Part shown: positions 40,377 through 40,960 of the stretch, in pieces
Layout: the number at the start of each line of letters is the position of its first letter
Numbering within the stretch: position 1 is the first letter of the stretch
NCBI GenBank assembly: GCA_964016885.1
Contig: OZ024741.1
Location: 183,706,001 to 183,770,000 of the forward strand
Length of the DNA stretch: 64,000 nt
Direction: 5' to 3'
Origin: Eledone cirrhosa
Taxonomy: Eukaryota
The notes under the pieces: generated by a model
The model's input: the letters and a program-made list of their open reading frames with translations, nothing else
Database searches by the model: none
Told to the model about the DNA's origin: nothing
Position numbers and translations under genes: made by a program

Positions 40377-40960
40377 AAAGCAAAAAGAATAGGTAAATAT
40401 TTAAATTATATTTTTTTAATTTATTTTGAAAAATTGTTTGAATTTTACTTGCTCCGCTTATCTCAATTTTATAGTTCTGGAATGTCAAATTAATACCATA
40501 GAACAACTGTACCATAGACACCCTATATATTTCCAACGGTACTTAGTACCTGTGGTAATATTGATCTCCTTTTTAAATATTCTCCTATGTGTAGAAAGAA
40601 AATCCGTTGTTTTACCTAGCTGCTATTTTTAGTGGCGTGATAGACAACACGTCTATGTTTACTTCCGCTTCTACTAAGGGCTAGTTCACGTGTAGGTCAA
40701 GTTTACGGCCTCATTCGATTCTGCACTAGATAGCTGAAGGCAATATATTTTGCCGTTCGTGGGACTTTACGTCCTATGTAAAGGAAAATGCTTTCTGAAG
40801 AGCCGAACGGTCCATTGGAAGTCCCTCGGTCTTCCAATCTTTTGTGAGGTGAAACCGTCGGTAAAAGCAAAAAGAATAGGTAAATATTTAAATTATATCT
40901 TTAAAAATTATTTTGAAAAATTGTTTGAATTTTACTTGCTCCGCTTATCTCAATTTTATA
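40377..40960 (+). mobile_element. Non-coding 487-nt monomer + 97-nt redundancy with an intact hammerhead (retrozyme-like)
   Basis: 40377-40473 = 40864-40960; (TA)n on both sides; the 5' end coincides with the predicted cleavage site. Confidence 0.88.
40789..40869 (+). ncRNA. Canonical type I hammerhead ribozyme
   Basis: TGCTTT-CTGAAGA-GCC..ATTGGAAG/CTTCCAAT..GGT-GAAA-CC GTC GG-TA|AAAGCA. Confidence 0.92.

Follow-up and report, generated by a model that had tools for sequence, protein, structure and literature searches.

The stretch of Eledone cirrhosa DNA analysed in this study (64,000 nt, hereafter the window) contains a non-coding repeat whose first base is the same base that a hammerhead ribozyme within the repeat is predicted to expose by cleavage (cut at 40863/40864), which raises the question of whether the 5' end of this copy was made by the ribozyme. 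The earlier note on this DNA, made from the sequence alone, took that end for the footprint of reverse transcription (RT) running off a cleaved RNA, and took the locus for the best candidate in the window for an active element. The genome in question is an animal genome of 3.0 Gb with many microsatellites. The focal copy lies behind a (TA)30 tract (40317-40376), which forms its left flank and is part of the insertion target; the unit start, AAAGCAAAAAG, follows at 40377 and recurs at 40864, giving a repeat unit of 487 nt. One full non-coding unit (40377-40863, + strand; 36% GC, old subfamily) is followed by a 97-nt tail (40864-40960, +) that repeats unit positions 1-97 with 93 of the 97 positions identical and stops at the first of the two 3' ends that are fixed in the family (putative RT start site A); a TA-rich right flank (40957-41109) lies beyond. 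The second fixed 3' end, at unit positions 199-204 (40575-40580, +; putative start site B), is unused in this copy. The coordinates, unit and overhang given in the earlier note are correct, as is its warning that, owing to the flanking TA, the 5' boundary can be placed only to within 2 nt: relative to the cut, microhomology limits the start of the copy to the interval -2 to 0. A target-site duplication is unreadable within the (TA)n microsatellite flanks. The interior, previously described as ORF-less, contains no ORF conserved between old and young units, the longest ATG frame having 99 codons (antisense) in the focal unit; in the young unit the longest has 40. GC is 0.34-0.36 in old and young units, and the stability of the unit fold is modest (z of -3.0 sense and -2.5 antisense, 25 shuffles).

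The predicted ribozyme is a type I hammerhead motif (40789-40869, +), with helix I formed by TGCTTT/AAAGCA (40789-40794/40864-40869), the core element CTGAAGA at 40795-40801, a 49-nt helix II domain at 40802-40850 and GAAA at 40851-40854; helix III is short and near-palindromic (3 bp, monomer probability 0.01); GTA comes next, and cleavage is predicted to occur after 40863. Scanning both strands of the window for the hammerhead core plus three helices returned five matches, namely the focal copy and four in Penelope-like elements. The fetched loci of the family contained 139 intact cores in 105 variants, one per unit of 481-488 nt, with GTA at the predicted cut in 132 of the 139; of these cores, 55 have ACCGTCGGT as helix III and another 55 have the perfect palindrome ACCGATCGGT. 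When 48 variants were aligned (the focal copy, 38 random singletons and each of the 9 that occur two or more times among the 105), 92.4% of cells were paired versus 30-54% in slid controls, and 8 of 22 pairs had changes on both sides; the aligned sequences are related, which means that the cells are not independent and that kinship inflates the shuffle control. Because 139 intact cores were found in the fetched loci, the hammerhead is, on comparative grounds, beyond chance, and its helices appear to be kept by compensatory changes across subfamilies.

The consensus parts CUGANGA, GAAA and NUH and the three helices are all present in the family's hammerhead. The G10.1-C11.1 pair is absent in the focal copy, where the base of helix II is G-U; across the 48 variants this pair is G-C in 19 and a mismatch in 25. 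Helix II reaches a probability of 0.07-0.12 in the focal copy versus 0.98 in the young unit. The earlier description of a canonical hammerhead cutting after 40863 is therefore right about the type I core at that place and too generous in view of the basal G-U pair of helix II and the 3-bp helix III. In the units folded, helix III had a monomer probability of 0.01-0.04, and its two-copy dimer was predicted at -11.3 to -16.6 kcal/mol versus +0.4 to -0.9 for the hairpin; a weak palindromic helix III is described as typical of dimer-acting hammerheads (PMC4209133, PMC7229834). Rfam searches of the whole window at the gathering threshold and of the element by E-value returned no hammerhead, only TA-repeat artefacts. 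A separate interior stem quoted in the earlier note was ruled out, with a pairing probability of 0.0 in the focal-copy ensemble and no counterpart in a 26-sequence consensus fold; positions 12-28 form local pairs instead.

To examine the ends of related copies without bias, every exact match to a motif spanning unit positions 58-86 was taken (99 in all, from old subfamilies), and 98 of these matches are carried by 91 distinct arms. The 3' ends of these arms fall at 96-97 (46 arms), 87-94 (11 arms), 197-205 (25 arms) or elsewhere (9 arms), with the two clusters at unit positions 87-97 and 197-205 holding 82 of the 91; TA-type sequence directly follows the 3' end in 72 of the 91. The 5' ends are scattered, with no position used more than four times, and 27 of 34 two-armed (back-to-back) insertions combine one short-site and one long-site 3' end. 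The fixed end of the family is its 3' end, which matches the tail signature of Penelope elements, and, with two fixed 3' ends internal to the unit, the 97-nt overhang of the focal copy is therefore an ordinary tail. Further marks of Penelope-type insertion are present in the form of 5' truncation, an inverted 5' arm and a (TA)n target. The family occurs as dispersed monomers and as tandem arrays of 2 to 7.4 units, with 459 exact junction anchors genome-wide, and the unit length is 481-488 nt across subfamilies that are about 20% apart. The earlier claim of a mobile repeat is borne out in that the family has the features of a reverse-transcribed, hammerhead-bearing, non-coding element. A metagenome pattern scan gave no matches. 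At one pair of loci (L079 and L080, G000:C2:229764979-229770670), two inverted copies 2.7 kb apart have identical ends and lack the same stretch, unit 421-461, so that the hammerhead has lost its 5' half.

If the focal copy had been made from a linear RNA cut by an upstream hammerhead and left uncut downstream, with RT running off the 5' end, the 5' ends of its relatives might be expected to gather at the cut. Among the old-subfamily arms, 81 reach the first junction, none of which stop within -3 to +2 of the cut and 80 of which read through; of the 14 that reach the second junction, 12 read through and 2, the focal copy and L026, stop. Background stops occur in these arms at 0.33% per base. 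An all-subfamily test used the 459 matches to the junction anchor, from which two patterns picked out 93 rows for classification by script, comprising 70 that are broken upstream at -3 and 23 that are intact at -3 and broken at -11. Anchors with the upstream unit still present (point changes, deletions), chance matches, one duplicate and one intact junction were removed, as was L013, whose start at +1 is preceded by a short duplicate. A further 33 rows at +7 to +12 were excluded on the grounds that a polymorphic stretch there inflates chance extension; used as a control, they would erase the excess described below. The events kept numbered 13 at -2 to +1, 10 at +2 to +6 and 13 at -3 to -10 (23 over 13 flanking positions), which after detection correction gives a cut-site ratio of 1.85 (one-sided p=0.059). 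The cut class amounts to 11 of the 459 anchors (2.4%), and about 97% of junctions start elsewhere. Copying nearly always crosses the cut site, and cut linear RNA is accordingly at most a minor template.

Post hoc splits of these events gave different results for different classes. First junctions had a ratio of 2.6 (p=0.013), while second and later junctions had 2 cut-site versus 8 flanking events (ratio 0.82, p=0.72); old subfamilies had 4 versus 16 (ratio 0.82, or about 1.0 with L013 counted), and young subfamilies had 9 versus 7 (ratio 4.2, p=0.005, from 16 events), the 9 young cut-site events standing against 209 exact young ribozyme halves. The pile-up of 5' ends that the earlier note proposed as a check thus comes close to failing overall and appears as an excess in young subfamilies only, and neither the subfamily nor the junction class of the focal copy has an excess in support of the run-off footprint. 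Microhomology blurs the start at several cut-class junctions. Between offsets -10 and +7, offset 0 has the highest coverage, by 10 of the 36 events. In one young locus (L135, G000:C1:229431600-229431657), a fold-back is centred exactly on the predicted cut; its arms, of 578 nt and 30 nt, each start from unit base 1, and no microhomology is present.

A small share of the family's copies may genuinely stem from run-off on cut RNA; run-off does not look absent, because there is a modest excess at the cut (1.85 overall, 2.6 at first junctions, 4.2 in young subfamilies). For the focal copy itself, an origin of the 5' end by ribozyme cleavage is rather unlikely. Its start is compatible with the exact cut, and L026 and L013 start there as well as the arms of L135; against this stand the lack of excess in its own classes, the TA at -2/-1 of the unit, which offers microhomology with the (TA)n target, and the post hoc nature of the young-subfamily result. 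In addition, in the available text of PMC11167929, uncut RNA is the dominant substrate of the Penelope protein in vitro and no RNA-seq ends were found at the cut site of the Penelope element. That the focal copy starts at the cut site is no proof of a cut-RNA template. The template of the family's copies is more likely to have been circular or uncut multimeric RNA, copied by a Penelope-like element.

The age structure of the family bears on whether the focal locus is itself an active source of a 487-nt circle. The focal unit carries 9 private alleles in 472 sites relative to its 9 closest loci, three of them in the helix II domain, and there are 4 differences between the copy's own repeats. 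A DNA search in which the best 40 of 2,236 candidates were scored, a set that favours full-unit coverage and was not used for 5'-end statistics, contained no relative of the focal copy above 94%, most being at 84-89%. The focal unit is 78-81% identical to younger units. A young 481-nt sister subfamily has copies that are 99-100% identical on different chromosomes, with a mean between-insertion distance of 0.62% (136 pairs); its 3' ends lie at 96 and 199, its layout is two-armed as in the old subfamily, and its arrays reach 7.4 units in a search whose dimer query favours multimers. Li et al. (2026, 10.64898/2026.07.22.740005) define an active retrozyme by two complete ribozymes, a definition that excludes the focal locus and includes others, such as L133 and L217. 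The focal locus would be unable to release a unit by two cuts because it has only one complete hammerhead. An active source here is highly improbable: the catalytic core is intact and private changes affect only about 2% of sites, but there is no second cut to free a monomer, helix II has the G-U pair and a low pairing probability, three private changes lie in its domain, and no near-identical offspring were seen among the best 40 of 2,236 candidates. Genome-wide, the locus loses its place as best candidate for an active element; the 481-nt young subfamily is judged from sequence identity to be the recently mobile form, and the focal copy to be ageing. No excess of A>G changes indicative of RNA-editing scars was found (A>G versus T>C was 2 versus 7 in young and 37 versus 49 in old copies, a weak test in which the old copies are saturated).

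Variation within insertions provides additional information on the template. Among 27 insertions, alleles private to one insertion and common to its units numbered 8 in L131, 2 in L227 (in all four segments) and 1 in L225, a pattern that fits repeated copying of one circle and equally fits a homogeneous linear multimer. In a young array of 7.4 units (L217, G000:C2:87301295-87304850), a variant at unit position 287 occurs in the third and sixth units; this period of three could reflect either a trimeric template or later block duplication.

The window also contains a candidate for the enzyme that copied these RNAs. A near-complete Penelope-like element, separate from the focal element, occupies 45624-50098 (+; ORF 46412-48876). 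It carries two hammerheads (46208 and 49910), and its reading frame is interrupted by a frameshift near 46810 and by a stop at 48349. The motifs of this element (RWT, DKT, YRDDG, CxCX5C and a C-terminal endonuclease region) fit the Hydra clade, for which the published motif is RWK (PMC8557442) versus RWT here; a Pfam search of four Penelope ORF pieces returned no families. The inverted 5' arm of this element (45624-46101) ends inside the 3' UTR, away from the tail sites. Its family is young and very abundant: over the endonuclease region, 150 of 150 scored copies (out of 61,101 candidates) are 99-100% identical, and several copies elsewhere keep open frames of 821 aa. At 30 loci of this element (L239-L268), 16 of 38 3' ends lie at cut+134/136 and 19 at cut+43 to +52, followed by (TA)n, and the two fixed ends are placed at cut+51 and cut+134. 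The Hydra-clade family of the window is, on these sequence features, a candidate helper. Of the 481 registers of the young unit, the one at position 199 gives the best match (10/16) to the 16-mer at the second start site of this element, four other registers reaching 9; its first start site was not top-ranked against site A, and the old unit likewise has no such match. The match to young site B is a lead only.

Fragments of related elements were also found in the window. Two 5'-truncated fragments of the young Penelope family lie at 28881-29235 (-) and 56873-56969 (-), with 94% and 85% identity, respectively; the former has a hammerhead at 29071 and a two-armed layout. An older, broken Hydra-type element (4961-6151 and 7413, +), with 35-59% protein identity to the young one, carries a hammerhead of its own and has a roughly 50-nt tail leading into (TA)n, and it could possibly have been the helper of the older retrozyme subfamilies. 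Other repeats include a perfect 332-bp palindrome at 4340-4671 (two 166-nt arms without a spacer, ending in (TA)n), whose terminal sequence is found again at 41760-41790 and next to several retrozyme loci (L007, L066) and which is likely another TA-targeting repeat. In addition, an 83-bp direct duplication with T runs lies at 39386-39552, 0.8 kb 5' of the focal copy, and translations at 18269-18661 (-) and 58559-59485 (-) resemble LINE-type reverse transcriptases as judged by eye.

Given the shared anatomy, the unit could be viewed as having come from some further coding Penelope family, either as its detached pseudo-LTR or by internal deletion, and as being copied from linear read-through RNA with the hammerhead as a passenger. 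There is precedent in Xenopus, where 24 of 57 retrozyme families are homologous to known elements, nearly all of them Penelope termini (Li et al. 2026, 10.64898/2026.07.22.740005), and the tail anatomy of the unit equals that of the coding element, with one Penelope family compared. A comparison of the unit with that family, the window's Hydra-clade element, found no alignable homology (best E 0.26). None of the fetched copies was seen to extend upstream into a coding Penelope, an outcome that the earlier note had named as one that would count against its reading. Opposing a pseudo-LTR origin, the inspected arms end in flank, (TA)n, an inverted arm or a further unit with no shared continuation seen, arrays of bare monomers reach 7.4 units, and compensatory changes keep the ribozyme helices across subfamilies about 20% apart. 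Such an origin is quite improbable.

The explanation favoured here, with reasonable though not strong confidence, is that the focal copy is a 5'-truncated, ageing copy of a hammerhead retrozyme with a unit of about 485 nt, and that its insertion into (TA)n was likely the work of the enzyme of a Penelope-like element. By analogy with PMC7229834 and PMC11167929, from whose descriptions dimer cleavage, ligation to circles and two-site target-primed copying are carried over, multi-unit loci would be transcribed, and paired hammerheads would cut the multimeric RNA via the palindromic helix III. Ligation would then turn the monomers into circles, where a single ribozyme would fold poorly. The (TA)n target would be cut by a GIY-YIG/RT protein, probably a Hydra-clade one, which would prime at one or both sites (about 97 and about 200); copying would extend over 0.2 to 7 units, passing through the cut-site junction, and would end at scattered positions. 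In the focal copy, priming would have occurred at unit position about 97, with a stop at the cut that was likely due to chance or to TA microhomology. A Penelope-type helper is proposed because the family's two 3' ends match the two internal sites at which a Penelope protein begins RT in vitro, which are reported to explain the genomic tail (Frangieh et al., PMC11167929); because the inverted, truncated layout is as in Penelope-like elements, for which truncation, partial tandems and inverted 5' arms are described (Craig et al., PMC8557442); and because the window's Hydra-type element likewise ends at two sites in (TA)n. A bolder version, in which the family records both templates of the retrozyme cycle (mostly circles, copied in up to seven rounds starting from the two priming sites, with a few per cent of linear RNAs cut by the ribozyme and copied to their 5' end) and the helper is the window's young Hydra-clade element, with its 16-mer match at young site B, is possible but doubtful; the few per cent of linear RNA are suggested by the young-subfamily excess and by the fold-back of L135 on the cut. 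If true, that version would name a specific protein and a specific RNA with which retrozyme mobilisation could be reconstituted.

Compared to known systems, the focal locus by itself is ordinary; on the sequence evidence, its family joins the animal non-LTR retrozymes as a new member, with Penelope insertion marks. In the literature searched outside subscription journals and supplements, no account of the family or of genome-wide 5'-end mapping at the cut site was found. As in the available descriptions of metazoan non-LTR retrozymes (PMC7229834; 10.64898/2026.07.22.740005), the unit is non-coding and low in GC, has one type I hammerhead with a short palindromic helix III, occurs as dispersed monomers and tandem multimers, and coexists with coding Penelope-like elements, the proposed mobilisers of retrozymes. 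Its length of 481-488 nt is above the 170-400 nt of PMC7229834 and within the 51-972 nt of 10.64898/2026.07.22.740005. Unlike those retrozymes as described, it has a 49-nt helix II domain, and no pseudo-LTR homology was found in the one Penelope family compared. The conserved core and 6-bp helix I, together with the weak palindromic helix III and a predicted two-copy fold, are like those of the dimer-acting hammerheads of newt and axolotl repeats and of Penelope pseudo-LTRs (PMC7229834; PMC4209133). Relative to the accounts of the newt and axolotl ribozymes, helix II is long and extended, G10.1-C11.1 is replaced by G-U (focal copy) or by a mismatch (25 of 48), and there is no Rfam match.

Additional similarities link the family to Hydra-clade Penelope-like elements as described (PMC8557442; PMC11167929), including two internal RT starts that yield a tail, heavy 5' truncation, an inverted 5' arm, partial tandems, a (TA)n target and a hammerhead 5' of the tail. 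Unlike endonuclease-bearing Penelope-like elements, the unit has no RT or endonuclease gene (no RT plus GIY-YIG ORF), and unlike Penelope-like elements as they have been described, it forms whole-unit multimers of up to 7.4 copies. The spacing of the start sites is about 105 nt in the unit and 83 nt in the local Hydra element, compared to tails of 30-40 bp in the published descriptions. In the cited retrozyme and Penelope papers, the copying of retrozyme circles by Penelope-like elements is put forward as a proposal, and the role of the hammerhead in Penelope transposition is described as unclear. Together with the young Hydra element, the 481-nt young subfamily offers a ready test pair. Two fixed 3' ends and two-armed (TA)n insertions are absent from the available retrozyme descriptions, and with its two priming sites, two-armed insertions and TA target the family adds genomic support for a Penelope helper.
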